Source of the DNA: a virus
Lineage: Duplodnaviria; Caudoviricetes
IMG/VR virus record: IMGVR_UViG_3300018405_000014
Location: 52,700 to 116,699 of that record
Reading direction: 5' to 3' (one strand)
DNA: 64,000 nucleotides
The notes under the pieces were generated by a model. That model was not told the DNA's origin and ran no database searches. It saw only the letters and a list, made by a program, of their open reading frames with translations. The position numbers and the translations under genes are program-made. Below, piece by piece: positions 7,358 to 29,506 of the stretch (positions are counted from its first letter, which is position 1; each line of letters begins with the position of its first letter).

Positions 7358-9595
7358 TTAACCTCCAGTTCCAGCGCCGGTATCAGAACCGGTACCAGTG
7401 CTGCCAGTGCTACCTTCGACGGGGTCGGTGGCGTCGGCGCTACCGGGAAAGTTCTGGACGGGATACGCCCAGCCCTCCGACAGTACTTCGTCCAGGCCGA
7501 TCACGTTGATCTTGCCGAAGATCGGGAGGTGGTTGACGTGACGGTTACGCGGCTGAACCATCGCTTCACGGATCTGGGTTTCATCACGGCTCACGTTAAC
7601 GTGGCTGATCAGTTCCGGAATCCAGAAGTGAGTACCGCAGTTCAGCGGATCGAGGCCTTCGGTTTCACGCTTGAAGGTCCAGTAGATGGTGCGGCGAATG
7701 CGCTCGTCGACCGAGGTCACTTTCTCGAAGCTGATGTCGTCACCCAGGGTACGGGCATCGCCGTCCTTCAGGATGTACGAAGCAGTCTTCGGATCGGAAC
7801 CGATGATCACGTGCACCTTCTCACCAACGTAGCCGGTGTAGGCGTCCAGAGCGGTCTTGTAGTTGGACTCCAGGATAGCATCCTGAATGTCGCTACGCAG
7901 GACGTTGCCCAGAGCAGCCTGGACGTCCTGTACGCGCTCGAAGCTGCGGCGGCTGATTACCAGCTCACGCAGGTCGAGGTTGCGCTCACGGAACCACGGA
8001 CGGACCAGGAAGCGTGCGATACCTTCGACTTCCGGCAGGAGGTCGTCAGCGTCGATGCTGCCGCTCAGGAACTTCCAACGGCTCAGGCCGTCAACGAAGC
8101 GCTGCAGAGTGGTCACAGCCATGTTGTCGTTACGCAGACGCGCAGCAGTCACCAGCAGATCGATGTCAGCCATGCCACGGGCTTCAGCCAGCGGGGACGG
8201 AATCGACAGCGGGCTACCCAGCATCACCGGATAACGCTCGGTGTACTCGGAGCTGTTCAGCTGCAGGCCGCGCAGACGGCGGTTGGCGTTGGACAGGCGA
8301 GCAGCCGGTTCCCAGCCGATCACAGCGAGGTCAGCCAGGCCATCAGCGATGGTCTTGCCTACGCCAGCGTTGGTCAGGGACAGGACTTCACCAGCAGCGT
8401 TAACCACACGGTCAACAGCGATGGTAGCCGGGTTGACAACAGCGTTGCCCTTCTCGACGTCCACGTTACCAGTCACGACCAGAGCCAGAGTCACGGTGTA
8501 ACCACCTTCGACGATCTGCTTCAGGATCGGGTTGGTTACCGGCTCGCCATTGTAGTTCAGGGACTTGGCATTGATCTGGATGGAGCTCGAACGGAAGTTC
8601 AGTTCCAGTTCGCGGGCCAGACCCTGGTTGCCCTTGATGAACGCAGCACGCGGCAGGTTCTCGACATCGAAGCCCAGAACGTCGCTGTCACCCTTACGGA
8701 TGTACAGAGTCTTCAGACCGACGTTGCGGTCCAGAGAATCGGTCTGGTTGGCTTGACCGGCGATCTTGACCAGAGTGTTCTGGGCCAGGCCGACCAGGTT
8801 GACGCGATTGCCGACTTTCAGAGCGCTGGTGGTGACCTTACGGTTGCCCAGTTCAACGCTGCGCGGAGCGATGACGTTTTCGGCGACGAACAGATCCTTG
8901 TTACCGTCATGGATTTCCGGTACCAGAGTGGTCGACTGGTCGGCCAGGATCTTGTAGTTCAGAGCAGCTTCGAGCAGACGGCGCTGTTTGAAGTCGGCGT
9001 GGTCGCCACGGGTGTTGTGCAGGAAGTGGTTCAGCACGAGGTGCGAACGGATGGTGACGTCAGCGCCGCCCTGTTCCGGGGTCAGAACCACGGTACGGTA
9101 GAAGCCTTCAGCGAATTCGCCCTGCTTGGCCGCTTTCTGGTTGTAGACCATGGACAGACCGATGAAGTCGGTCAGGTTGCTGTTGTCGAAGGCTTCCAGG
9201 GAAGCGACAGCTTTTTCCATGAAGTCGAAGTCGCCGAGGGACTCGACGGAAACGACGGTGCCAGCGCCACGAGGAGCGGAAGCGTCCGAAGCGCTGAGAG
9301 CGGTACGGGCGTATTCAGCCGGGGAGGCCGAAGCCATGGCGATAACAGCAACGGCGTCTTTCTGAGCCTTGGTCAGGGTTTCGCCGCCGAAGGATTCCAG
9401 GGAGACCGACAGGTCGCTGACCACGGATTCCATGGACAGTTCCAGGTTTTCACGGTCCAGCGAGGACAGCGATTCCATGGATGCTACACCGATGTTACCA
9501 ACGATGGCACCCTGGCTGAAACGGGATTGCAGATCTTGAGCCTGACTGGCCAGGGTTTCCTGGGCGGTCGGCGCCTTCTTACCTACTACACTCAT
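7358..9595 (-). CDS. Major capsid protein (phiKZ gp120-like)
   Basis: ~745 aa with strong codon bias; N-terminal propeptide with repeated SME/SLE/SVE sites; QGEFAEGFYRTVV and QPRNRHVNHLPI motifs; GGAG RBS before MSVVGKK. Confidence 0.9.
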   Translation of the reverse strand: MSVVGKKAPTAQETLASQAQDLQSRFSQGAIVGNIGVASMESLSSLDRENLELSMESVVSDLSVSLESFGGETLTKAQKDAVAVIAMASASPAEYARTALSASDASAPRGAGTVVSVESLGDFDFMEKAVASLEAFDNSNLTDFIGLSMVYNQKAAKQGEFAEGFYRTVVLTPEQGGADVTIRSHLVLNHFLHNTRGDHADFKQRRLLEAALNYKILADQSTTLVPEIHDGNKDLFVAENVIAPRSVELGNRKVTTSALKVGNRVNLVGLAQNTLVKIAGQANQTDSLDRNVGLKTLYIRKGDSDVLGFDVENLPRAAFIKGNQGLARELELNFRSSSIQINAKSLNYNGEPVTNPILKQIVEGGYTVTLALVVTGNVDVEKGNAVVNPATIAVDRVVNAAGEVLSLTNAGVGKTIADGLADLAVIGWEPAARLSNANRRLRGLQLNSSEYTERYPVMLGSPLSIPSPLAEARGMADIDLLVTAARLRNDNMAVTTLQRFVDGLSRWKFLSGSIDADDLLPEVEGIARFLVRPWFRERNLDLRELVISRRSFERVQDVQAALGNVLRSDIQDAILESNYKTALDAYTGYVGEKVHVIIGSDPKTASYILKDGDARTLGDDISFEKVTSVDERIRRTIYWTFKRETEGLDPLNCGTHFWIPELISHVNVSRDETQIREAMVQPRNRHVNHLPIFGKINVIGLDEVLSEGWAYPVQNFPGSADATDPVEGSTGSTGTGSDTGAGTGG

Positions 9596-19332: not shown

Positions 19333-19443
19333 GTAATCCGAACCAACATACGTGGCCAGACGGTACCCCGTCTGGCCACTATGTCCGCAATCCTATGTAC
19401 AGTCATTTAAACTGTGCTTCATCTCTTGAAGAGGAAAATATAC

Positions 19444-20577
19444 ATGACCAGCACGTTTGTCGACAAGTCTGGGCGTGGCGTCCTGCTGGCTGCCCTAAAT
19501 AAGGCAGCGGCTACTAAGGGTTATTCTTTTGCTCCGACTGATCTGAATTTCGGTCCAGTGGAAGCATCGAGCAACCCGGTACGCCAGAACCAAGTCATCT
19601 ACACCGCAGCCGCTGACAGTCAGTACGAAGGCAGCCAGGTTGCTTACTACAACCGCCTTGACCTGACGCAGCTGTTCGTCAATGCAGGCATTGTTAATGT
19701 CGAGCTCACCCAGGGCGCCGTCACCACCGGTGATGTTGTGGCTGCTCTGAATGCCCGTTTCGGTCTCGGCTTCAGTGCCGAAGACATCGATTTCAATGTT
19801 GCAGTCGATCCGGCTGCCACCTCTGTGATTCTGCAGGCCCTGGAAGGCTCCTACGGCTTCCAAGGTCAGCTGGAAATCCAGTTGGTGGAGGGTAGCGTCC
19901 CTTTAGCTGAAGTCGTCGTGGACCCGGTTCTCGACGGCCCTGAATACCCCGCTCCTGTTCCAGCGTATATTATCGATCCGGTGATCGTGACTGGTGAACT
20001 GACCCTCAAAGGTCAGAAGGCTGATGGCACCATGCTCAATGGCACTGGCAACCCATCGACCGAATTCACTGTCGCCACTAACGGTGAACTGGAACTGGCT
20101 GTCGGTGCCCGTATCTGGAAGTCGGCTGTCCTGCCGGTACCGGAGGCTGGCCATTACAACATCGAGATCGCTGAAAACAGCGATTGGAACTGGCCGTTCT
20201 CGGTGGCCCTGCTCAGCGAGAGCCGTCCGGTCACCGACCTGTACGATGTCGTCCTGTCGATCACGTCGCTTGAGACGGGTGTCGCCCTCCCATTCCAACT
20301 GGTTCGTGATGCTGAAGGCGTAATGCACTTCATCAACGAACAGCACGGGTTGGACATTTCCGACAGCGTAGTGACTGCCTCCGGTGATGTTGTGCAGAAC
20401 ATTCAGCGGGCTACCTTCTACAAGGCCCAGCTGGGTGAGATGACCACTAACACCCTGGGATCACCGATCGGTGACTTCCTGATCAGTCTGAATGCCGTTC
20501 GGCGTGAAGGCCTGGTACAGCCGCTGCAGGTCGAGATCAGCGTTAGCGTATCCGTGCCTGGTTCTGAGCCGGTATAA
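19444..20577 (+). CDS. Virion structural protein, YNRL paralog-family N-terminal domain plus extra C-terminal domain
   Basis: YEGSQVAYYNRLDL...ALNARFGL is shared with the 43.7-54.7 kb array. Confidence 0.7.
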   Translation: MTSTFVDKSGRGVLLAALNKAAATKGYSFAPTDLNFGPVEASSNPVRQNQVIYTAAADSQYEGSQVAYYNRLDLTQLFVNAGIVNVELTQGAVTTGDVVAALNARFGLGFSAEDIDFNVAVDPAATSVILQALEGSYGFQGQLEIQLVEGSVPLAEVVVDPVLDGPEYPAPVPAYIIDPVIVTGELTLKGQKADGTMLNGTGNPSTEFTVATNGELELAVGARIWKSAVLPVPEAGHYNIEIAENSDWNWPFSVALLSESRPVTDLYDVVLSITSLETGVALPFQLVRDAEGVMHFINEQHGLDISDSVVTASGDVVQNIQRATFYKAQLGEMTTNTLGSPIGDFLISLNAVRREGLVQPLQVEISVSVSVPGSEPV

Positions 20578-22601: not shown

Positions 22602-23159
22602 TTACTGGAAATCTTCAATCGGTACGCCACGCACCTGACCCTCATCCGTTACCCGGATGATGCCTTCGTCTGTAATGCGTCGTACGGCTTCAGACCAGAA
22701 GATGTGGATGGTCTTACGGCCGATGTAGATGTAGGATGTGTCTTTGGCAAAGATCTCGATCTCAAGGAACTGCGCCAGCGAATCGAAGGGGTGATCGATA
22801 TCCACATCGAATTCACCATCGACCAGGTTGAACTTACCGTCCAAGTAACGGATCAGGGCTTCCTTACCGTCAATCAGGGGTGCCTTGGCAGCGTCAATTT
22901 CAAAGACCGGGTAGTGAGTCTCGATGTCAGCACGGGCATAGTAAAGATCGACATCGCCTTTGACGGGGCCGTTAACCTTACCACTGACCTTAATGACAGT
23001 GTTGTCACCGTGTTCATCCGGTTCAATGGCACGTGGTACCCCCACATCCAGATCACGAGAACTCAAGCGGATGCGGTTGGTTCTGAAGATCAGGGCAAAG
23101 AGGTTCTCGAGCGCCGTTTTATCTGGGTCGAAGTGAAAGTCTTTCGTTTTACAAACCAT
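22602..23159 (-). CDS. Virion structural protein, YNRL paralog family
   Basis: NTVIKV...KGDVDLYYARADI...SYIYIG. Confidence 0.6.
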   Translation of the reverse strand: MVCKTKDFHFDPDKTALENLFALIFRTNRIRLSSRDLDVGVPRAIEPDEHGDNTVIKVSGKVNGPVKGDVDLYYARADIETHYPVFEIDAAKAPLIDGKEALIRYLDGKFNLVDGEFDVDIDHPFDSLAQFLEIEIFAKDTSYIYIGRKTIHIFWSEAVRRITDEGIIRVTDEGQVRGVPIEDFQ

Positions 23160-23191: not shown

Positions 23192-23557
23192 TCATAGTAT
23201 TTCACCCTTGTAATTCAGGTGGTACCCGTTGTCATCGGCTATCTGTCTCATGTATCGGATAAAGAGATGCCGGTGACAGAACTTACCTGCAGTGCAGTAA
23301 CAAGCCACAGCTAATGGACCCGTTCGCTCAAGGAAGCCCTGGAAGTCCTCAGGAGCCTCTCTAAAGCGCTCTGTAAGCTTCTTTAGGTAGATCTCGGTAT
23401 ATTGGTCGTCTGTAACTTCACCGCGCTTGTATGCGTACAGGACGTCCTTGTAGGGAGCGAAGGGTTCAAAGCCTGATTTGACTGTGATGTCGAATAACTC
23501 AATGCCTCTGTCGCGGGCTTTCCGCCACTGTGGTATCGCGATCGTATAAACGTCCAT
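23192..23557 (-). CDS. DUF488-like protein
   Basis: DITVKSG..FAP, Y...Y, ACYC....FCHRH. Confidence 0.65.
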   Translation of the reverse strand: MDVYTIAIPQWRKARDRGIELFDITVKSGFEPFAPYKDVLYAYKRGEVTDDQYTEIYLKKLTERFREAPEDFQGFLERTGPLAVACYCTAGKFCHRHLFIRYMRQIADDNGYHLNYKGEIL

Positions 23558-23609
23558 GCTCGTCTCCGAAGATTGTCATACCCTACCCTGGGTTATTTTG
23601 AAATCACAG

Positions 23610-24045
23610 CAAAACAAAAAAAGAAATAAAGTACTTCCCCCAGTGATCAGCCCAATCGTTCGAAAGGACGGATCACTGGAGGCTGCACTTTATGTCTGAA
23701 TCGGAGAAGGAGCGGACCCCAATCCAGACACCACAGGCAGGGAGAAAGCCGGAAAACCCCCCGACTGTGTTTCTTTGCAGCGGTGTGGAGCAACGACGCT
23801 CTACACACCATCGTTTACCACCTTCCCTTGGCCTGGAAGGCGGAACCACAATCACCTGAGCTATCACGACAAGTTCACTCAGGGCAACGAACAGGGACGT
23901 GAGGTGGGATTATCCCACCTCACGAAGGTGCACCACGACTAAGGGGGTAGTCAGGTACTGGGCTAGGGAAAAAGTACCCCAGCAGGCTCTACGCAGTGAA
24001 GCGCATCAGGTTGACCATGCTTTAAATGCATAGTCTGACATACTA
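23610..24045 (-). ncRNA. Candidate structured non-coding RNA (~430 nt)
   Basis: ORF-free; about 9 consecutive hairpins; G-U pairs form only on the minus strand; TATAGTATG at the 5' end and hairpin plus U-run at the 3' end. Confidence 0.6.
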
Positions 24046-24072
24046 TACCGTAAAACAGTACAAGTATTTCAG

Positions 24073-25614
24073 TTACACCCCAAGGAGGATACCGAGTGAG
24101 AGAAGATTGGCTTGCCCATCACGCAGCGAGGCACCGATCCACGTCTGATAATGACGTGCCAATACTTCAGCAGCATGCGGGGTCATCAGGTCAGTGGAGA
24201 ACACGAAATCGACCGCTTGGTCGTTTTCAGCGATAGCCTGACCTTCGGGGGTGAGCATACCGTGATCGCCAAGGAAGCGAAGGATCTGTGTGTGGATACC
24301 ACGGACTTCGGCGGCTTGTTCGCCGTACGCTTCGGCATCCCAGACCATGGGTTCGACCAGAGATTCGTTGGAATTGGTTTCACCGTCTTCCTCCTCCTCT
24401 TCAAGGTCTTCGTCTTCTTCCTGCTCTTCGGATTCAGGCTCCTCTTCCTCTTCGACTTCGGTTTCAATAGCGTCTTCGTCGATCGTGTCGGCGTTGGCTA
24501 CTTCTTCCTCTTCGTTATCGAAGTCGTCACCTTCCTCTTCTTCCTCAGGGAGCTCTTCCTCCTCTTCGGGAAGCTCCTCTTCTTCGACTTCTTCAGGGAG
24601 TTCTTCTTCCTGCTCGTCGTCGAGGTCGGTTTCTTCCTCTTCTTCAGACGCCTCTTCAAGATCGGGGTCTTCTTCAAGAGGTGCTTCTTCCTCTTGTTCC
24701 TGATCATCCTCGTTCGGGACGAGTTCCATTTCGTCATCGGTCATGGAAGTGTCGTCCATAACATCGTTCTGCTCGTCGTCAGACTCGGACTCGTCGAGCG
24801 TTTCTTCTTGCTCTTCGTCGTCCTTGGGTTCAGCATCCGACTGGATGCTGTTGACAGAGGTGCCTTCCTCGAACTGGATACCGACCGGGTTGTCCTGGCG
24901 ATGCTTTTCGATCAGATCGCCCAGCTTGTCCGCTTCGTCGCTGCCGACAGCCTGAGCGTCTGCGCGAATGGCTTCAGCCTGCTCAAGCACAGACTCATGG
25001 GCCTTGGTCACCAACTGTTCGATGCGATCAACGGCATCGCTCATTTCACCGAGGACTTGCGTCTGTTCCAACGATTCCATCGACACACCGAGCTTGTCAG
25101 CATACGAGCCAAAGCAGCGGGTGACGCTTTGAAGCAGAGGTGTGGCGGCCGCTACCGGGAAGGATTCCATCGATAGGACCGAGCGAATGGCACCAATGTA
25201 GTTACGATGGATAGCCAGCATCTCCATCGACAGGATCAGTTCTTCCTGCGAGGCGTGAGTGGCGCGTTCGCTGGTATGGAAAGCTACAGGTTCTTCTGCA
25301 TCGGCCTTGGCTTGCAGAGCGTCTTCGATCTGCTCGACTTCGGTCAGACGAGGGGTCAGGACATCCTGCATGATCAGCTCGACCCGGACCTGTGGTTCTT
25401 CAACACCGTCAACGGCTACGAGGTCCTGTTGGTGGTCTGCTTGCTCAAGAACATTCTCGGCCAACACCTGGAAGGCGGTTGCAGAGGCATCTTCCATCGA
25501 CGGACTGCTGAGCAGGGCACGCCCTACACTCATCAGGCTTTCCAGGCTGGTGCGGTAGTTCTGGGCTTCGTTAAGCATGACGGCTGCAGTCGGTTTGCTT
25601 GCGGTGTGGCTCAT
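24073..25614 (-). CDS. Highly acidic internal head/scaffold-like protein
   Basis: At least 5 SLE/SME motifs and a long E/D tract. Confidence 0.7.
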   Translation of the reverse strand: MSHTASKPTAAVMLNEAQNYRTSLESLMSVGRALLSSPSMEDASATAFQVLAENVLEQADHQQDLVAVDGVEEPQVRVELIMQDVLTPRLTEVEQIEDALQAKADAEEPVAFHTSERATHASQEELILSMEMLAIHRNYIGAIRSVLSMESFPVAAATPLLQSVTRCFGSYADKLGVSMESLEQTQVLGEMSDAVDRIEQLVTKAHESVLEQAEAIRADAQAVGSDEADKLGDLIEKHRQDNPVGIQFEEGTSVNSIQSDAEPKDDEEQEETLDESESDDEQNDVMDDTSMTDDEMELVPNEDDQEQEEEAPLEEDPDLEEASEEEEETDLDDEQEEELPEEVEEEELPEEEEELPEEEEEGDDFDNEEEEVANADTIDEDAIETEVEEEEEPESEEQEEDEDLEEEEEDGETNSNESLVEPMVWDAEAYGEQAAEVRGIHTQILRFLGDHGMLTPEGQAIAENDQAVDFVFSTDLMTPHAAEVLARHYQTWIGASLRDGQANLLSLGILLGV

Positions 25615-25663: not shown

Positions 25664-28600
25664 ATGTACGCCAATTTCTCGCGTCTGTTAGGGTTGATCT
25701 CCGTGAAGGAGACCGGCTCTCACATTATAGTCAATGGAATACCTGGGCTCAGGTTCTCTAAAGACGTATACAATCACTGGAAAACTAGCAAGTTGAACAA
25801 CAACATGTTCACTGCTATTTCGCGAAGTGGCGTAAAGTTTCCCAAGTTCTACGCCATCGAAGTTCTGTACATGTTGGATCAACTGATCCAATCCCGTCGG
25901 ACGTATGTGGGTCGGCGGACGCTACAGCGTGTACGCGATGAGTTGATTGCTGGCACGTGGCTGCGCAACATAGGTCTGGGTGATTTCACCTCCAGGCTTA
26001 ACATGTCGGCACTGAAGGACTTGACAGTCACATTATTTCCCCATCAAATTAACTTTTTACAGCATTACGACAGAGCTACGTTTGAATACTCGCTCAATGG
26101 AATGTTGATGGACGCGGCAGCAGGATCGGGTAAGGCTCAGCCTCTTGACGCTAAAATCAAGGTACCTGGTGGTTGGGCCACTATGGGTGACATGCGCGTG
26201 GGGAGTCAGGTGATTGCGCCGGACGGTACGACCGTCAATGTGTCGGGTGTTTATCCTCAAGGTGTAAAAGACATCTATGAAATTGAGTTCGTCGATGGGC
26301 GGAAAACCAGGGCGTGTGGTGAGCATCTCTGGGAATGTCACGACGGAAGGCAGAGTAATGTTTCCCGTCAGTGGGATGTCCGATCGACGTTGCGTATGAA
26401 AGAGATTTTAGAATCTCGCGGTGGTAATCGACTGTACGTTCCTCTCATCACTCCAGATGAAGGTACAGAGGTACAATACCCACTTGACCCGTATGTGCTG
26501 GGTGCGTTATTGGGCGACGGTGGTCTTCGATACCATGTTGCCTTTTGTACTCCAGATGCCGAGGTACTGGAGAATGTCCGTAATGCCTTACCAGACACCG
26601 TGGAATTCAAACGTATAACTGAAATCGACTACAGCATTGTGGGTGTTGAGCGCGGCGACAATGTACTGAGACGGATAGTTAGAGAACTTGGATTATTTGG
26701 TAAGTATTCTCACGAAAAACATATTCCTAGTGAGTATCTCCAGGGTTCCCGGACACAACGCCTGAGTCTTCTTCAAGGCCTCATGGACACCGATGGAACT
26801 TCGGATCAGCAAGGGACCGTCTCATTTTGCTCCAGTAGTAAGCAATTGGCGGAAGGTGTGCAGTATCTGGTTCGCAGTCTGGGTGGTATCGCCAGGATCG
26901 CTGTTCGGAAACCGACTTATACTTACAACGGCGAGACGCGAAATGGCCGCCCTGCATATCAAGTCAACATTCGTCACTCCAAACCATCCGAACTGTTCAG
27001 GTTAAAACGCAAACAGGAACGTTGTAAAGACGATGGACAGTATGCTGCAACGCTCAAACTACGTGTTAAGTCAATCAAGCTCGTCGGTCAGGAAGAGGCG
27101 CAATGTATCAGGGTGGATCATCCGAAACACCTGTACATCACCGATGACTTCATTGTCACCCATAACACGATCTCGCAATACGCCACGGCCCATTGCTTGG
27201 GGGCTGACACCTCAGTGCTCGTTGTACCGAAGAACTCTGTGTTTGACGTCTGGGTCAAAACCATCAAGGTACTCTTCAAGCAGACGCCAGAGTACTGGCA
27301 CAGCCTGAGTGGAGAGGAATTGACTCTGGGCAAGAAGTACTACATCGTCCACTACGATTATCTGGAGAAGTTCGTGGCCTTCGTCGGGGCTAACAAAGGC
27401 AGCTTCGGCAAGGTCTACGTAGGGATCGACGAATCGCACAACTTCAACGAGCAGTCCAACCGGACCAACCTGCTGATCCAGCTCTGCCAGACCCTCAAGG
27501 CTCGAGATGTGATCCATGCATCGGGTACGCCATTCAAGGCCATGGGTTCTGAAGCCATCACCCTGCTGGCGACGATCTGTAATGACTTCACCCCTGAAGT
27601 ACAAGGGTCCTTCCGTAAGATCTTTGGCAAGGAGGCTAAGCGGGCGATTGAGATCTTGGCTAATCGAATCGGTATTGTCTCCTTCAAGGTGGTGAAAGCT
27701 GACATCGAGACGCCGGGTGTGGATTACCATGAGATCAAGGTACCGATGAACAACTCATCGGAATATACCTTGACCAGTGTCCGCGAAAAGATGAGCAAGT
27801 TTATCGATGAGCGTTTGGCCTTCTACCGAAAGGGGATGCCGGAGTATGAAAAACTCTACGCGACGTGCATGGACCTTCACGGGCAGACTGTAAAGGGCGG
27901 AATGGCCTCCGCAGCGTTCTCCGAATACCGACGTGGCGTGGCTCAACTTCGCAAGGGGTATGATCCAGTTACCATGAAGGATCTGGTGATGTACTGTAAC
28001 CGGTACGAGCTGAAGACCATTGTTCCCTCGCTACCTGAACGGTACCGCAAACCGTTCTTGAATGTCCGTGCCATCATCAAGTACGTTGACCTCAAGGTCA
28101 TGGGTGAGGCGTTATCTCAGGTATTGGGGCGCCTGCGCATCCAGTGTCACTTGGACATGCTACCCAACATGCCCTTGGATGAGATCATCGACAACGCGAC
28201 CACCAAAACGGTGATCTTCACCAGTTACGTGGAAGTGGTCAAGGAGCTTGAGAGCCTGCTGACGAAGGCGGGGTATAAACCCATGCTGGTGTACGGGGAG
28301 ACCAACAAGGACTTGCCGAACATCGTCAAGCGGTTTGAGAATGACGACGACATCAACCCTCTGGTGGCAACCTTCAAGTCCCTGTCGACAGCTGTACCGT
28401 TGACCATGGCCAACACAGTGGTGTTCACCAATGCCCCGTTCCGTGATTACGAACGGACGCAGACCATTGCCCGTGTTGACCGAATTGGACAGAAACATCG
28501 CTGCCATGTATACGAGACGTATCTCGATACCGGTGCAGAGCCGAACATCTCGACGCGCTCTAAGGACATCATGGCGTGGAGTAAATCTCAAGTCGAGGCT

Positions 28601-29506
28601 ATCCTCGGGGTCAGTGCTCCGGATGATCTGGAGACTTCGTTGGAGTCTTTGGTGGAGAACCCTAGTGCGACCTTGCCCGATGCTGAAGGTTTCATGGCAC
28701 GTTTGCAACAAGAGCTGCCAATCGACGTGGTCGAGGATGATGTGAGTATGGAGGGTCTATTTAGCAATGCCCCATCCGCAAACATCCATAAGACGGAAGC
28801 CGTTCTGGCAAAATTGAAGGAGACGTATCTTAATTCGTCTTGGAGGTCAAAGCAGAAGTTCAAGGAAGGCAAGCTTCGGCTTGAAAACAGTCACCTGACC
28901 GAGATCGCCAGAGTCAATCAGACCAAGCAGGTCATGGACAAATGGGTGGATGCAGTCAGAACCCGTAGTTCGAGCCTGGCCAGAACAGTCAGTGACTTCT
29001 CCAAGGGCTGGAAAGACCCCAGTAAGGTAGAGCGTTGGGCAGACGGAATCGAGACTGACACTCTGCACGGGGCTCGCAGTAAGCAGACAGTCACTGTCAT
29101 CCGGCTGGCCGACAAAATACCGACGATGAATGGTTACATCATCGGTGGTGTCGGCACTACGACTTATCTGAGCACCGATAAAGAGGTTCTTGACGCTGCT
29201 AAGCGGCTCGAAGCTCTGCTGGATCACGATGTCGTTTGGATTGACGAACTGCTCGATAAGGAGTTTTCTCACAAGAGATTTGGAGAGTTCCATCGTGGGG
29301 CCGACCACACTACCTTGCTCGATGAAATCTCCAGCAGCGATCTCTCACATGCCGAGGATGCCATAATGGTATACAGGGCGATCAAAAACACCATGAAGAA
29401 GGAAGAAGCTGACTTCGTTAACTCACCTGAGGCCAAGTTGTTTAAGGACCATCACAGTGCGATGTACAAAGCGCTGTGGGCACAGCTAACGAAATCCACC
29501 AAATAA
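25664..29506 (+). CDS. SF2 (SNF2/DExH) helicase with intein and C-terminal head-protein-like extension
   Basis: AAGSGK|T Walker A, IDESH, ASGTP, VIFTSY, QTIARVDRIGQ. Confidence 0.85.
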   Translation: MYANFSRLLGLISVKETGSHIIVNGIPGLRFSKDVYNHWKTSKLNNNMFTAISRSGVKFPKFYAIEVLYMLDQLIQSRRTYVGRRTLQRVRDELIAGTWLRNIGLGDFTSRLNMSALKDLTVTLFPHQINFLQHYDRATFEYSLNGMLMDAAAGSGKAQPLDAKIKVPGGWATMGDMRVGSQVIAPDGTTVNVSGVYPQGVKDIYEIEFVDGRKTRACGEHLWECHDGRQSNVSRQWDVRSTLRMKEILESRGGNRLYVPLITPDEGTEVQYPLDPYVLGALLGDGGLRYHVAFCTPDAEVLENVRNALPDTVEFKRITEIDYSIVGVERGDNVLRRIVRELGLFGKYSHEKHIPSEYLQGSRTQRLSLLQGLMDTDGTSDQQGTVSFCSSSKQLAEGVQYLVRSLGGIARIAVRKPTYTYNGETRNGRPAYQVNIRHSKPSELFRLKRKQERCKDDGQYAATLKLRVKSIKLVGQEEAQCIRVDHPKHLYITDDFIVTHNTISQYATAHCLGADTSVLVVPKNSVFDVWVKTIKVLFKQTPEYWHSLSGEELTLGKKYYIVHYDYLEKFVAFVGANKGSFGKVYVGIDESHNFNEQSNRTNLLIQLCQTLKARDVIHASGTPFKAMGSEAITLLATICNDFTPEVQGSFRKIFGKEAKRAIEILANRIGIVSFKVVKADIETPGVDYHEIKVPMNNSSEYTLTSVREKMSKFIDERLAFYRKGMPEYEKLYATCMDLHGQTVKGGMASAAFSEYRRGVAQLRKGYDPVTMKDLVMYCNRYELKTIVPSLPERYRKPFLNVRAIIKYVDLKVMGEALSQVLGRLRIQCHLDMLPNMPLDEIIDNATTKTVIFTSYVEVVKELESLLTKAGYKPMLVYGETNKDLPNIVKRFENDDDINPLVATFKSLSTAVPLTMANTVVFTNAPFRDYERTQTIARVDRIGQKHRCHVYETYLDTGAEPNISTRSKDIMAWSKSQVEAILGVSAPDDLETSLESLVENPSATLPDAEGFMARLQQELPIDVVEDDVSMEGLFSNAPSANIHKTEAVLAKLKETYLNSSWRSKQKFKEGKLRLENSHLTEIARVNQTKQVMDKWVDAVRTRSSSLARTVSDFSKGWKDPSKVERWADGIETDTLHGARSKQTVTVIRLADKIPTMNGYIIGGVGTTTYLSTDKEVLDAAKRLEALLDHDVVWIDELLDKEFSHKRFGEFHRGADHTTLLDEISSSDLSHAEDAIMVYRAIKNTMKKEEADFVNSPEAKLFKDHHSAMYKALWAQLTKSTK
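26135..27166 (+). mobile_element. Class-3 (Ala1) intein with LAGLIDADG homing endonuclease, 344 aa
   Basis: AQPLDAK start; EHLW (block B Trp), AQCIRV (block F Cys), VTHN|T end; LGALLGDG and LQGLMDTDG. Confidence 0.9.

Follow-up and report, generated by a model that had tools for sequence, protein, structure and literature searches.

A gap between two genes of a phiKZ-related jumbo phage appears to encode an independent, late and trans-acting structured non-coding RNA: a discrete molecule of about 430 nt that belongs to a new family. We put the probability of this reading at about 0.6. The sequence, here called RNA1, is conserved within one clade of phiKZ-related jumbo phages, and the feature that is kept is the RNA fold. 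Specifically, selection keeps eleven helices and a three-way junction closed by a further, long-range helix. The helices drift freely by compensatory change, while certain loops and joining strands are invariant. The novelty lies at the level of the RNA family. That is, no described family or mechanism fits RNA1, which can only loosely be grouped with the large phage non-coding RNAs.

RNA1 is located on the minus strand of the window, the 64,000-nt stretch of phage DNA analysed here (its own record fragment is 116.7 kb long and 44% complete). An initial annotation, made from the sequence alone, had drawn attention to an ORF-free gap between two minus-strand genes. The gap is confirmed: it extends over 23558-24072, is flanked by minus-strand ORFs at 24073-25614 and 23192-23557, and is ORF-poor over 23610-24039. 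The features of the locus are as follows.

24073-25614, minus strand: upstream gene; its 513-aa product contains a long acidic tract, and the part coding for the C-terminus precedes RNA1 in 12/12 loci.
24039-24048, minus strand: start word GTATAGTATG, ending in TATG, whose G (24039) is the putative transcription start.
23610-24039, minus strand: non-coding RNA gene RNA1, ~430 nt, supported by fold z-score, 12 homologs, covariation and the lack of a conserved ORF; both ends are predicted from sequence signals.
23192-23557, minus strand: downstream gene for a DUF488-N3a protein, homolog of PHIKZ151; directly 3' of RNA1 in 11/12 loci.

The acidic-protein gene has a single holder among 50,697 phage records, Pseudomonas phage pPa_SNUABM_DT01 (DT01). 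Its product belongs to no Pfam or PHROG family, and a protein atlas gave no usable match for residues 1-240 and only sub-threshold matches (<=0.82) for residues 415-513. For the downstream gene, no literature was found under 'DUF488-N3', and a comparative paper on jumbo phages (PMC7824862) mentions neither DUF488 nor a non-coding RNA.

The region folds far better than expected by chance, particularly on the strand of the flanking genes. For 23610-24039, the minimum free energy (MFE) of the minus strand is -204.4 kcal/mol (z -9.38; 0/100 shuffles as good), compared to -149.3 for the plus strand (z -3.38), a difference of 55 kcal/mol. The syntenic gap of DT01 also folds well (z -5.9). Moreover, G-U or U-G pairs are kept in 12/12 homologs at several positions, such as pair 58-71 of alignment A15 (5' part) and pair 117-167 of alignment A16 (3' part). 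Since these pairs would be A-C mismatches on the plus strand, the strand asymmetry described in the initial annotation is real. Fold strength, conserved G-U pairs and covariation among homologs all bear out its proposal that the minus strand carries an element with extensive structure at the RNA level.

We identified 12 distinct homologs of RNA1 (window included), all of which keep the 11 helices and the long-range UCGUU/AACGA pairing. One is carried at 262,320-262,750 by DT01, the sole cultured phage found with RNA1, and the others by uncultured jumbo-phage contigs of about 250-277 kb. Pairwise identity ranges from 55 to 98%; the window is the most divergent member (55-59% to all others). Each helix re-forms in each homolog when its segment is folded alone. 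Two loci were left out of the counts: L003, whose sequence is identical to that of L069, and L070, which repeats L067 almost exactly but is truncated. Stricter E-values dropped spurious weak matches (L073, window positions 8219 and 11942, and reverse-strand matches to the palindromic terminator). Searching with the 15-mer GTGCAGCCTCCAGTG matched 64 viral loci, six with RNA1 and the rest by chance (RNA1-holding loci: L003, L010, L024, L047 and L066, with L067/L068 reached by other routes), and motif-scan matches in L002 and L073 were dropped as chance. RNA1 is present in single copy: the R1 model has one match each in the window's own fragment, DT01 and the genomes G001-G005. No match was obtained in phiKZ, Noxifer, PA1C, Viktualia, pEa_SNUABM_11, Moabite or SEGD1; the same kind of search found DT01, the positive control. 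Within the genome, no part of RNA1 recurs (as a direct repeat or a DGR- or retron-like template), and a template repeat of the DGR or retron type was rejected.

Covariation among relatives, a question raised by the initial annotation, is extensive. Across the 12 homologs, 74 of 123 modelled pairs change on both sides, well above shuffled and slid controls, although this count leans towards the modelled structure because the alignments were fitted to it by covariance models. The fraction of paired cells is 92.1% in the 5' part, 97.6% in the core and 94.5% in the 3' part, cell counts that overstate independent events as the 12 sequences represent about five lineages. In the 5' part, 24/39 pairs change on both sides (shuffles 16.3, 0/500 reaching 24; slid partners 4-8). 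The corresponding numbers are 20/35 for the core (shuffles 12.8, 0/500 reaching 20; slid partners 3-5) and 30/49 for the 3' part (shuffles 18.5, 0/500 reaching 30; slid partners 8-20). From the 5' end, RNA1 is organized as follows.

24013-24035, minus strand: helix 1, in its window-specific form GACUAUGC/GCAUGGUC, obtained by folding where the initial annotation had drawn it.
23990-24005, minus strand: helix 2, invariant hairpin UGCGC-UUNANU-GCGUA; 5/5 pairs identical in 12/12 homologs.
23962-23983, minus strand: helix 3, variable hairpin; 6/6 pairs change on both sides, and it forms in every homolog.
23930-23958, minus strand: helix 4, with C-rich loop ACCCCCU; contains GACUA-CCCCCU-UAGUC; 9/11 pairs covary.
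23898-23924, minus strand: helix 5, 12-bp stem with variable loop; 8/10 pairs covary.
23811-23890, minus strand: three-way junction holding helices 6 and 7, closed by UCGUU (23886-23890)/AACGA (23811-23815).
23855-23883, minus strand: helix 6, CCUGAG/CUCAGG, with invariant loop UGAACUYRUCGUGAUA; 6/7 pairs covary.
23818-23843, minus strand: helix 7, CCGCCUUCC/GGAAGGUGG; 5/6 and 4/5 pairs covary.
23782-23809, minus strand: helix 8, GGUGUG..GAGC/GCUCCACACC; 5/10 pairs covary.
23732-23769, minus strand: helix 9, with conserved loop CCGGCU; 11/11 pairs covary.
23692-23731, minus strand: helix 10, UGUCUGGAUUGGG/UCCGAUUCAGACA, with pyrimidine-rich loop; 10/13 pairs covary.
23605-23693, minus strand: helix 11, terminal hairpin CCAGUGAUC/GAUCACUGG followed by a U-run; invariant core GUGCAGCCUCCAGUG/CACUGGGGGA (23626-23693).

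Nine of the ten elements proposed initially (hairpins plus the motif TATAGTATG) were recovered in place. The exception, a GGUACU/AGUACC hairpin, is an alternative pairing that is incompatible with two helices supported by the homologs. Three elements are additions to the initial picture: the hairpin at 23990-24005, the CCGGCU-loop hairpin at 23732-23769 and the long-range UCGUU/AACGA helix, which is invariant in 12/12 homologs. The helices differ in how they are conserved. At helix 1, the other 11 homologs have UGUAGGAC..UUCUUU.ACA instead, with one covarying pair. The pairs of helix 2, being identical in 12/12, are conserved and beyond the reach of a covariation test. Helix 11 combines both behaviours, as 9 of its 25 pairs covary and 11 never vary.

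The C/U-rich loops that the initial annotation likened to anti-Shine-Dalgarno sequences are conserved in part. The CUCCU-type loop of helix 10 is: it reads GUCCGCUCCUUC in the window and GUGCCACUCCUC in most homologs, and (A/G)CUCCU(C/U) is kept in 12/12. On the other hand, the C5 loop of helix 4 is present in 10/12 homologs (missing in L069 and L072), and UUUUUCCCU is specific to the window. The loop of helix 7, CGCUACC, is found in 11/12 homologs and lost in the window. A GUAG at the 5' end and the CUAC of this loop go together: the window lacks the two, and the other 11 homologs have them.

RNA1 matches no known family. Rfam 15 (spanning GOLLD, ROOL, RNase P, 6S, group I/II introns, riboswitches, T-box and Rsm RNAs) gave 0 matches at gathering score in the 64-kb window, and ARAGORN found 0 tRNA or tmRNA genes there, in agreement with the lack of tRNA, tmRNA and RNase P hallmarks remarked upon initially. 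At E<=10 over 23400-24250, the only matches on RNA1 were chance-level and miRNA-like, on the terminal hairpin (mir-4504, 24.3 bits vs 104; mir-250, 20.7 vs 58). One snoRNA match at the same threshold lies in the flank of RNA1. In six homolog loci, Rfam had nothing on RNA1. A conserved protein-coding frame, which the initial annotation held would speak against its proposal, was looked for in the 12 homologs and not found: each sense frame contains 3-14 stops in each homolog, and ORFs of at least 25 aa differ in place and frame. Literature searches for a large jumbo-phage non-coding RNA found none that fits; the sRNA candidates tabulated for PMC10914365 and PMC11512511 concern phiKZ and 201phi2-1, outside this clade.

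Several signals suggest that RNA1 is transcribed on its own. The start word is kept as TATAGT(A/G)TGT in 12/12 homologs, and the TATAGTATG singled out in the initial annotation falls at exactly 24039-24047. In 6/6 complete genomes of 254-277 kb (DT01 and five relatives), GTATAGTATG occurs in exactly two copies; the scan of the five complete relatives gave 0 control matches. One copy is ~150 nt upstream of the R1 core and the other heads a second non-coding element. The late promoter of phiKZ is TATG with the +1 at its G (PMC4666361 section 17; PMC12809450), and a virion and a non-virion multisubunit RNA polymerase are reported for DT01 (PMC8541153 section 3.2.2). By analogy, GTATAGTATG would be a phiKZ-type late promoter, with transcription from its G. 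It may instead act as a processing or recognition site at the RNA1 5' end. As a general promoter TATAGTATG was rejected, with only two sites in the 116.7-kb fragment: it is specific, not general. A sigma-70 promoter scan found none.

At the other end, helix 11 and the U-run at 23605-23625 probably form the terminator of RNA1. The terminator motif of phiKZ is given as a hairpin followed by TTATKYYGT, i.e. TTAT(G/T)YYGT (PMC10914365 section 18), and RNA1 has a GC-rich hairpin and tail of this type. In relatives, the tail after helix 11 is UUUAUGCCGU, and their RNA1 ends in TTTTATGCCGT or TTTTGCCGT; the window has a degenerate form, TTTTGCTGT, after the U-run. The tail of the relatives also matches a recurrent motif of the genome, hairpin plus TATGCCG, which is found 26 times in the window's own 116.7-kb fragment (mostly directly after GC-rich hairpins) and 42 times in DT01. 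A simple terminator scan did not call hairpin 11 because its loop exceeds the scanner's limit. RNA1 thus has a TATG-containing start word (12/12) and a probable terminator of its own, and a start at GTATAGTATG with a stop at hairpin 11 and its U-rich tail would make RNA1 its own transcription unit, made late.

Evidence of expression comes from public sequencing records, where part of the stretch occurs in 20 entries from 13 studies. Two entries may represent the source sample, and four runs were examined. Run X20, on record as RNA, has a single 177-nt contig (depth 3) on 23741-23918, a weak metatranscriptome hint of RNA1 expression. Runs X14, X15 and X18 are probably DNA. Uncovered flanks and low-complexity pile-ups (24384-24427 and 23271-23312) were uninformative in the four runs.

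The second copy of GTATAGTATG heads RNA2, a conserved non-coding element of about 300 nt placed after a different gene and that gene's terminator; in DT01 it lies at 119,630-119,940. RNA2 is GGA-rich, with 10-14 GGA on the sense strand vs 0-1 on the antisense. It has no Rfam match to any Rsm family at E<=10, and the R2 model finds nothing in phiKZ or PA1C. Direct pairing of RNA1 with RNA2 was rejected. For the full-length duplex, RNA2 shuffles matched or beat the energy in 10, 24, 25, 27 and 29 of 30 cases (five genomes), and single conserved RNA1 loops never paired with RNA2 better than composition-matched shuffles (best cases 12 and 13 of 200). We consider it doubtful, if conceivable, that GTATAGTATG, a UCC-/CCUCC-rich RNA1 and a GGA-/GGAGG-rich RNA2 make up a two-RNA system with a private transcription signal, which reprograms late translation or forms an RNA-rich particle. 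If so, RNA1 loops would resemble anti-Shine-Dalgarno sequences and RNA2 a Shine-Dalgarno or Rsm-binding site. Both RNAs would be made together late, and translation would be re-programmed outside the phage nucleus: one RNA would sequester 30S subunits or host regulators of the Rsm/CsrA type, and the other would mask or mimic the anti-SD of the ribosome. Alternatively, RNA1 and RNA2 would assemble into an RNA-rich particle.

Other explanations place RNA1 within a neighbouring mRNA. It could belong to the DUF488 gene as a 5' leader acting in cis (riboswitch-like or an attenuator), with hairpin 11 as a regulated premature terminator and RNA1 as the terminated by-product. The layout invites this idea, as RNA1 is directly upstream of the DUF488 gene in 11/12 loci with its terminator 50-70 nt before the start codon, and small RNAs of phiKZ and 201phi2-1 often arise from premature 5' UTR termination (PMC10914365 section 20; PMC11512511 section 16). 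However, the linkage is not fixed: a Kelch-repeat gene separates RNA1 from DUF488 in L072, and many DUF488 homologs (289 phage records; loci inspected in PA1C, Viktualia, pEa_SNUABM_11, Moabite, SEGD1 and Noxifer) lack such a gap. Hairpin 11, with its 25 pairs and invariant core, showed no apparent conserved opening pairing in an informal look at the alignments. In addition, with 430 nt and 11 helices RNA1 is far larger than the leader-derived sRNAs on record, for which PMC11512511 set a filter of <250 nt. The motif GGTAnnnTATR, rejected as a general promoter since it is not enriched genome-wide (14 sites vs ~28 expected), stands between the terminator and the DUF488 gene in five homologs. We consider a leader unlikely. 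We give somewhat less credit to a structured 3' UTR of the acidic-protein mRNA, or a product processed from it, which would stabilise that mRNA or be freed by an RNase at the 5' word. The acidic-protein gene does precede RNA1 in 12/12 loci, both are confined to this clade, and Pseudomonas phage PAK_P3 has 3' UTR-derived non-coding RNAs that lack their own start site (PMC10914365 section 20). Against this, 6/12 homologs (L010, L047, L066, L069 with its identical L003, L072 and L024) have a hairpin after the stop codon of the upstream gene and ahead of the start word. The same 10-mer also heads RNA2, behind a different gene and terminator, which suggests a shared initiation or recognition signal and not a gene-specific UTR.

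The two remaining explanations concern the nature of the molecule itself. RNA1 could work as an RNA-only machine, acting as a ribozyme or self-assembling into multimers as GOLLD and ROOL do, with RNA-RNA contacts made by its conserved loops. Large RNAs with a tertiary fold show this pattern of variable helices and invariant loops/junctions, the loop of helix 9 has a self-complementary apical CCGG in 12/12 homologs, and the 5' GUAG and helix 7 CUAC were lost together in the window and kept in the other 11. Yet RNA1 has no similarity to any Rfam ribozyme or large-RNA model, and the co-loss of GUAG/CUAC is a single event. As the proposed tertiary pairs never vary, covariation cannot probe them. 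On balance, an RNA-only machine is very unlikely. Hardly credible is an element of the other strand or of the DNA, i.e. the plus-strand, GGA-rich RsmA/CsrA sponge offered in the initial annotation, or an origin or packaging site. The plus strand is indeed GGA-rich (14 copies in the window, 7-11 in each of nine further homologs counted; the minus strand has 2-8, with four in the window), and its fold still beats shuffles. The sponge is nonetheless rejected because the minus strand is indicated by its fold (z -9.4 vs -3.4), by its conserved G-U pairs and by the orientation of the start word, the terminator tail and both flanking genes. For a DNA element, compensatory changes that keep pairing down to 55% identity are unexpected in a protein-binding site, and the genome has no direct repeats or DGR-like copies of RNA1 elsewhere.

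Returning to RNA1 as an independent late RNA, its mode of action can be sketched as follows. The phage's own non-virion RNA polymerase would read GTATAGTATG and start RNA1 at the G, and transcription would end at the long hairpin 11 and the U-rich tail. RNA1 would then accumulate as a stable, compactly folded particle that works in trans. Its variable helices would act as scaffolding, and the invariant single-stranded elements (the UGAACUYRUCGUGAUA loop, the CCGGCU loop, the CUCCU and C5 pyrimidine-rich loops, and the junction strands) would provide contact surfaces for a protein or a purine-rich RNA. Most likely, RNA1 would serve as an RNP scaffold or decoy rather than as a cis-regulatory leader.

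Few large RNAs combine an intricate fold with strong covariation, and each new class has opened the question of what RNA is able to do without protein. The relatives of phiKZ are jumbo phages that form a nucleus; interest in them comes from phage therapy and from the way they evade defences that target DNA. To our knowledge, the non-coding RNAs so far described in this group are short, leader-derived candidates. RNA1, a word occurring twice per genome and a GGA-rich RNA2 together suggest an overlooked RNA-based layer of the late infection programme. Since the P. aeruginosa phage DT01 is in culture, RNA1 is directly open to mapping, deletion and purification.

Among known systems, GOLLD and ROOL are large structured non-coding RNAs of phages/prophages, Rfam families of several hundred nucleotides with many helices and strong covariation; we know of no function for these and similar RNAs. 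RNA1 is alike in phage origin, size, number of helices, covariation, and conserved loops and junctions. It differs in matching no Rfam family, in its host group (phiKZ-related jumbo phages of Pseudomonas-type hosts), in not being beside tRNA arrays (no tRNA in the window) and in having a dedicated start word in common with RNA2. RsmY/RsmZ-type RNAs are GGA-rich sponge RNAs of Pseudomonas. Any likeness to them is limited to RNA2, with its GGA-rich sense strand, whereas the transcribed strand of RNA1 is not GGA-rich. The late transcription units of phiKZ have TATG at the start and G as +1, as inferred for RNA1. However, their consensus has only four bases, and the word of the RNA1 clade has ten, invariant and twice per genome, which suggests an extra specificity undescribed for phiKZ. 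Finally, the sRNA candidates reported in phiKZ and 201phi2-1 (89-196 nt, with a <250 nt filter in the 201phi2-1 study; PMC10914365; PMC11512511) belong to the same wide group of phages as RNA1, with which they share a hairpin with a TTAT-type tail, an intergenic/leader position and conservation among relatives. These candidates are defined by read ends, whereas RNA1 is defined by covariation, over 430 nt and 11 helices.

RNA1, the structured RNA of the minus strand (helices numbered 1-11 from its 5' end), is a conserved non-coding fold of ~430 nt, confined to one jumbo-phage clade and outside the described families. Fold energy, 12 homologs, covariation and the lack of a conserved ORF bear out the initial annotation, which had read the locus as an unannotated structured ncRNA of this size and strand. 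Read on the minus strand, the gap between the flanking genes is a succession of hairpins. The last three features below had been missed.

24073-25614, minus strand: upstream ORF, 513 aa (ORF scan)
23192-23557, minus strand: downstream ORF, 121 aa (ORF scan)
23558-24072: inter-ORF gap of 515 bases, flanked by two minus-strand ORFs
23990-24005, minus strand: helix 2, a small invariant hairpin
23732-23769, minus strand: helix 9, a hairpin with a CCGGCU loop
23886-23890 with 23811-23815, minus strand: long-range helix UCGUU/AACGA, closing a three-way junction

Both strands were folded against shuffles, as had been proposed. The minus strand of 23600-24050 reaches a minimum free energy of -204.4 kcal/mol (shuffle mean -145.8; z -9.38; 0/100 shuffles as good), and the plus strand -149.3 (z -3.38). 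Nine of the ten hairpins listed earlier are present, with exact coordinates for the 12-bp stem (23898-23924) and for TATAGTATG (24039-24047); the tenth, GGUACU/AGUACC, is an alternative pairing that competes with two homolog-supported helices. The suggested alternative, a plus-strand RsmA/CsrA sponge, is rejected on the difference in z and on G-U pairs that are found in 12/12 sequences and become A-C on the plus strand (e.g. columns 58-71 of A15 and 117-167 of A16, two alignments fitted to covariance models). A DNA-element reading of the locus is likewise rejected. A protein-coding reading is excluded because every homolog carries 3-14 stops per sense frame, in all three frames, and ORFs of at least 25 codons vary in position and frame.

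Known families do not account for the RNA. Rfam 15 gave zero matches at gathering score over the whole window and ARAGORN found zero tRNA and zero tmRNA, in keeping with the absence of tRNA or tmRNA hallmarks noticed at the outset. A permissive Rfam scan of 23400-24250 returned only a snoRNA model in the flank and, on the terminal hairpin, two models for miRNA precursors that stayed far under their thresholds. Full-length scans of six homologous loci gave no match on RNA1.

Among 50,697 phage records, blastn found a single relative, Pseudomonas phage pPa_SNUABM_DT01 (DT01; MW735835). Its gap in the same place (513 bases, unannotated, fold z -5.9) is flanked by genes for a hypothetical protein and a DUF488 protein, and in its alignment with the window, identity blocks alternate with stems in which both arms differ. 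Patterns from the identical blocks brought up homologs in IMG/VR and metagenome contigs; none turned up when one genome per prokaryote species was scanned. Of the 64 hits of a 15-mer, 58 were dropped as chance matches, as were L002 and L073, and duplicates were removed (L003 has the sequence of L069; L070 is a near-copy of L067). This left 12 distinct sequences: the window, L001 (DT01), L010, L024, L047, L066, L067, L068, L069, L071, L072 and L074. They are 55-98% identical in pairs and form about five lineages, with the window the most divergent (55-59% to all others). Homologs on long contigs come from records of 254-277 kb (CheckV 96-100% complete); the window's own record is a 116,699-base fragment, 44% complete. 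A search with R1, a covariance model of the core, matched DT01 and gave no match in PA1C, Viktualia, pEa_SNUABM_11, Moabite, SEGD1, Noxifer or phiKZ. R2, a model of the 3' part, had no match in Noxifer, phiKZ or PA1C.

Folding the anchor-to-anchor segments sequence by sequence gave identical hairpin placement in every homolog, with differing stem sequences. Three covariance models were built from hand-checked structures, and the 12 sequences were realigned to them before pairs were counted.

Pairing and covariation in the three modelled parts of RNA1
R3, 5' part through helix 5: 92.1% of cells paired; 24/39 pairs changed on both sides; shuffle mean 16.3 (0/500 reach the observed value); partners slid 1-3 columns, 4-8
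R1, core junction and helix 8: 97.6% paired; 20/35 changed; shuffle mean 12.8 (0/500); slid, 3-5
R2, helices 9-11 (3' part): 94.5% paired; 30/49 changed; shuffle mean 18.5 (0/500); slid, 8-20

Covariation among related phages, proposed as a check, is present: 74 of 123 pairs change on both sides. Because the models shaped the alignments, these lean towards the structure, and since the sequences make up about five lineages, cell counts overstate how many independent events there were. Sliding the partners retains this relatedness and still gives values far under those observed. Most of the signal comes from helices 3, 4, 5, 6, 7, 9 and 10. Helix 2 and the UCGUU/AACGA helix show zero variation, so covariation speaks neither for nor against them.

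The unpaired elements behave differently from the stems.

Conserved unpaired elements of RNA1
5' GUAGGACCUGUUCUUU: 11/12; the window differs
Helix 2 loop UUNANU: nearly invariant
Joining strand UAUUUCGUUGCC: nearly invariant
Helix 6, 16-nt loop UGAACUYRUCGUGAUA: nearly invariant
GUUGC-GUUC between helices 6 and 7: nearly invariant
Helix 7 loop CGCUACC: 11/12; lost in the window
GUAAACGAUG: nearly invariant
CGCUGC: nearly invariant
Helix 9 loop CCGGCU: nearly invariant
Helix 10 loop (A/G)CUCCU(C/U): 12/12
Helix 11 core: nearly invariant

Helix 4 keeps its C5 loop in 10/12, and helices 3, 5, 8 and 11 have freely variable apical loops. Such a combination of drifting helices and fixed loops and junctions is typical of an RNA that has a tertiary fold or binds partners. 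The window's copy, alone among the 12, is without the 5' GUAGGAC, having its own hairpin instead (24013-24042), and without the CGCUACC loop of helix 7 (23818-23843). Since GUAG and CUAC are complementary, their joint loss here, a single event, could be the trace of a tertiary contact.

The word TATAGT(A/G)TGT stands directly 5' of the first helix in 12/12 homologs. The phiKZ late promoter is described as the four bases TATG, with transcription from the G (PMC4666361 section 17; PMC12809450), and DT01 is reported to encode phiKZ-like virion and non-virion RNA polymerases (PMC8541153 section 3.2.2). TATAGTATG was rejected as a general phage promoter, with 2 occurrences in the 116.7-kb fragment. 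At the other end, the relatives' RNA closes with helix 11, a U-run and then TTTTATGCCGT or TTTTGCCGT; the window's tail is TTTTGCTGT. For phiKZ terminators, the shared motif is given as TTATKYYGT after a hairpin (PMC10914365 section 18). The genome that holds the window repeatedly shows (T)TATGCCG(T) right behind a GC-rich hairpin, with 26 copies of TATGCCG in 116.7 kb and ~six-fold enrichment in intergenic DNA; this match indicates that the same kind of terminator is used in this distant clade. Examples with (C/T)T(C/T)TATGCCG(T) lie at window 11891, 32209, 35206, 43438 and 54051, and DT01 holds 42 TATGCCG.

In its 10-base form, GTATAGTATG, the word is found exactly twice in DT01's 265,520 bases and exactly twice in each of five complete relatives, both on one strand, against a chance expectation of ~0.5 per genome; a reversed control word was absent from the five relatives. 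In each genome one copy precedes the R1 core by ~150 bases, and the other stands at the head of a second gap without ORFs (DT01 119,574-119,973, between PA10_00117 and PA10_00118), which holds a separate finding, RNA2, whose bearing on RNA1 is through this shared start word.

L102:2128-2440, which is MW735835 ~119,630-119,940, plus strand: RNA2, with homologs L103-L109

RNA2 starts past the upstream gene's terminator and spans ~300 bases, with a hairpin and T-run of its own at the end. It is present in 7/7 complete relatives searched, 76-84% identical to the DT01 copy in lineages where RNA1 is only ~60-70% identical to DT01's; the window's record gave no match, a negative that carries no weight at 44% completeness. 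It is purine-rich (GGA 10-14 times sense, 0-1 antisense), without Rfam matches, and its covariation is small (3/71 predicted pairs, five sequences). We regard it as a candidate sponge-like GGA-rich ncRNA. Predicted duplexes of RNA2 with whole RNA1, or with single conserved RNA1 loops, were no better than composition-matched shuffles.

The main rivals would make RNA1 a cis-acting leader of DUF488, the 3' UTR of the acidic-protein mRNA, or an RNA-only machine. The leader reading draws on the downstream gene, 23192-23557, a DUF488-N3a member homologous to PHIKZ151 with homologs in 289 phage records. In six other jumbo phages inspected, no comparable gap lies upstream of the DUF488 gene, and in L072 a Kelch-repeat gene separates it from RNA1; RNA1 is therefore untied to DUF488 and travels with the acidic-protein gene, directly upstream in 12/12 loci. 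(Kelch-repeat-like genes at 752-1762 and 2315-3226 of L072 flank its DUF488 gene, the first being this insertion.) That constancy is what a 3' UTR would share; a hairpin stands between the upstream stop codon and the start word in 6/12 homologs, and the start and end signals fit a separate transcription unit from the G at 24039 to ~23610. The acidic protein has an Asp/Glu-rich tract of ~170 residues, no lead in Pfam, PHROG or atlas, and a homolog only in DT01 among phage records.

Two DUF7941 / PHROG 'virion structural protein' paralogs, 22602-23159 (minus) and 19414-20577 (plus), place RNA1 in a late, structural-gene neighbourhood. At 25664-29506 (plus), a 1280-aa SNF2-type helicase carries LAGLIDADG/Hom_end homing-endonuclease domains at residues ~354-440, which suggests an inserted intein. 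Public runs holding part of the stretch comprise 20 rows from 13 studies, mostly DNA metagenomes, two maybe from the source sample. Four labelled as RNA libraries were examined, three of them probably DNA. In the fourth, X20 (on record as RNA), specific cover amounts to one 177-nt contig (depth 3) at 23741-23918, inside RNA1 and from a close relative (5 differences), a weak hint of expression.

We favour RNA1 as its own late transcription unit. More tentatively, it would form a folded particle that works in trans, touching a partner through its invariant loops and junction strands; the CUCCU of the helix 10 loop (12/12) is a possible anti-Shine-Dalgarno. DT01 is cultured, which makes the RNA directly testable. 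The gap goes without mention in the accessible part of the DT01 genome paper, and the searchable literature, supplementary tables on phiKZ and 201phi2-1 aside, holds no fitting large structured ncRNA in jumbo phages. We rate RNA1 as a previously undescribed RNA family for which no functional analogue is known. The sRNA candidates described for phiKZ and 201phi2-1 (PMC10914365 section 20; PMC11512511 section 16) are short and mostly leader-derived, whereas RNA1 is large, at ~430 nt, and structured.
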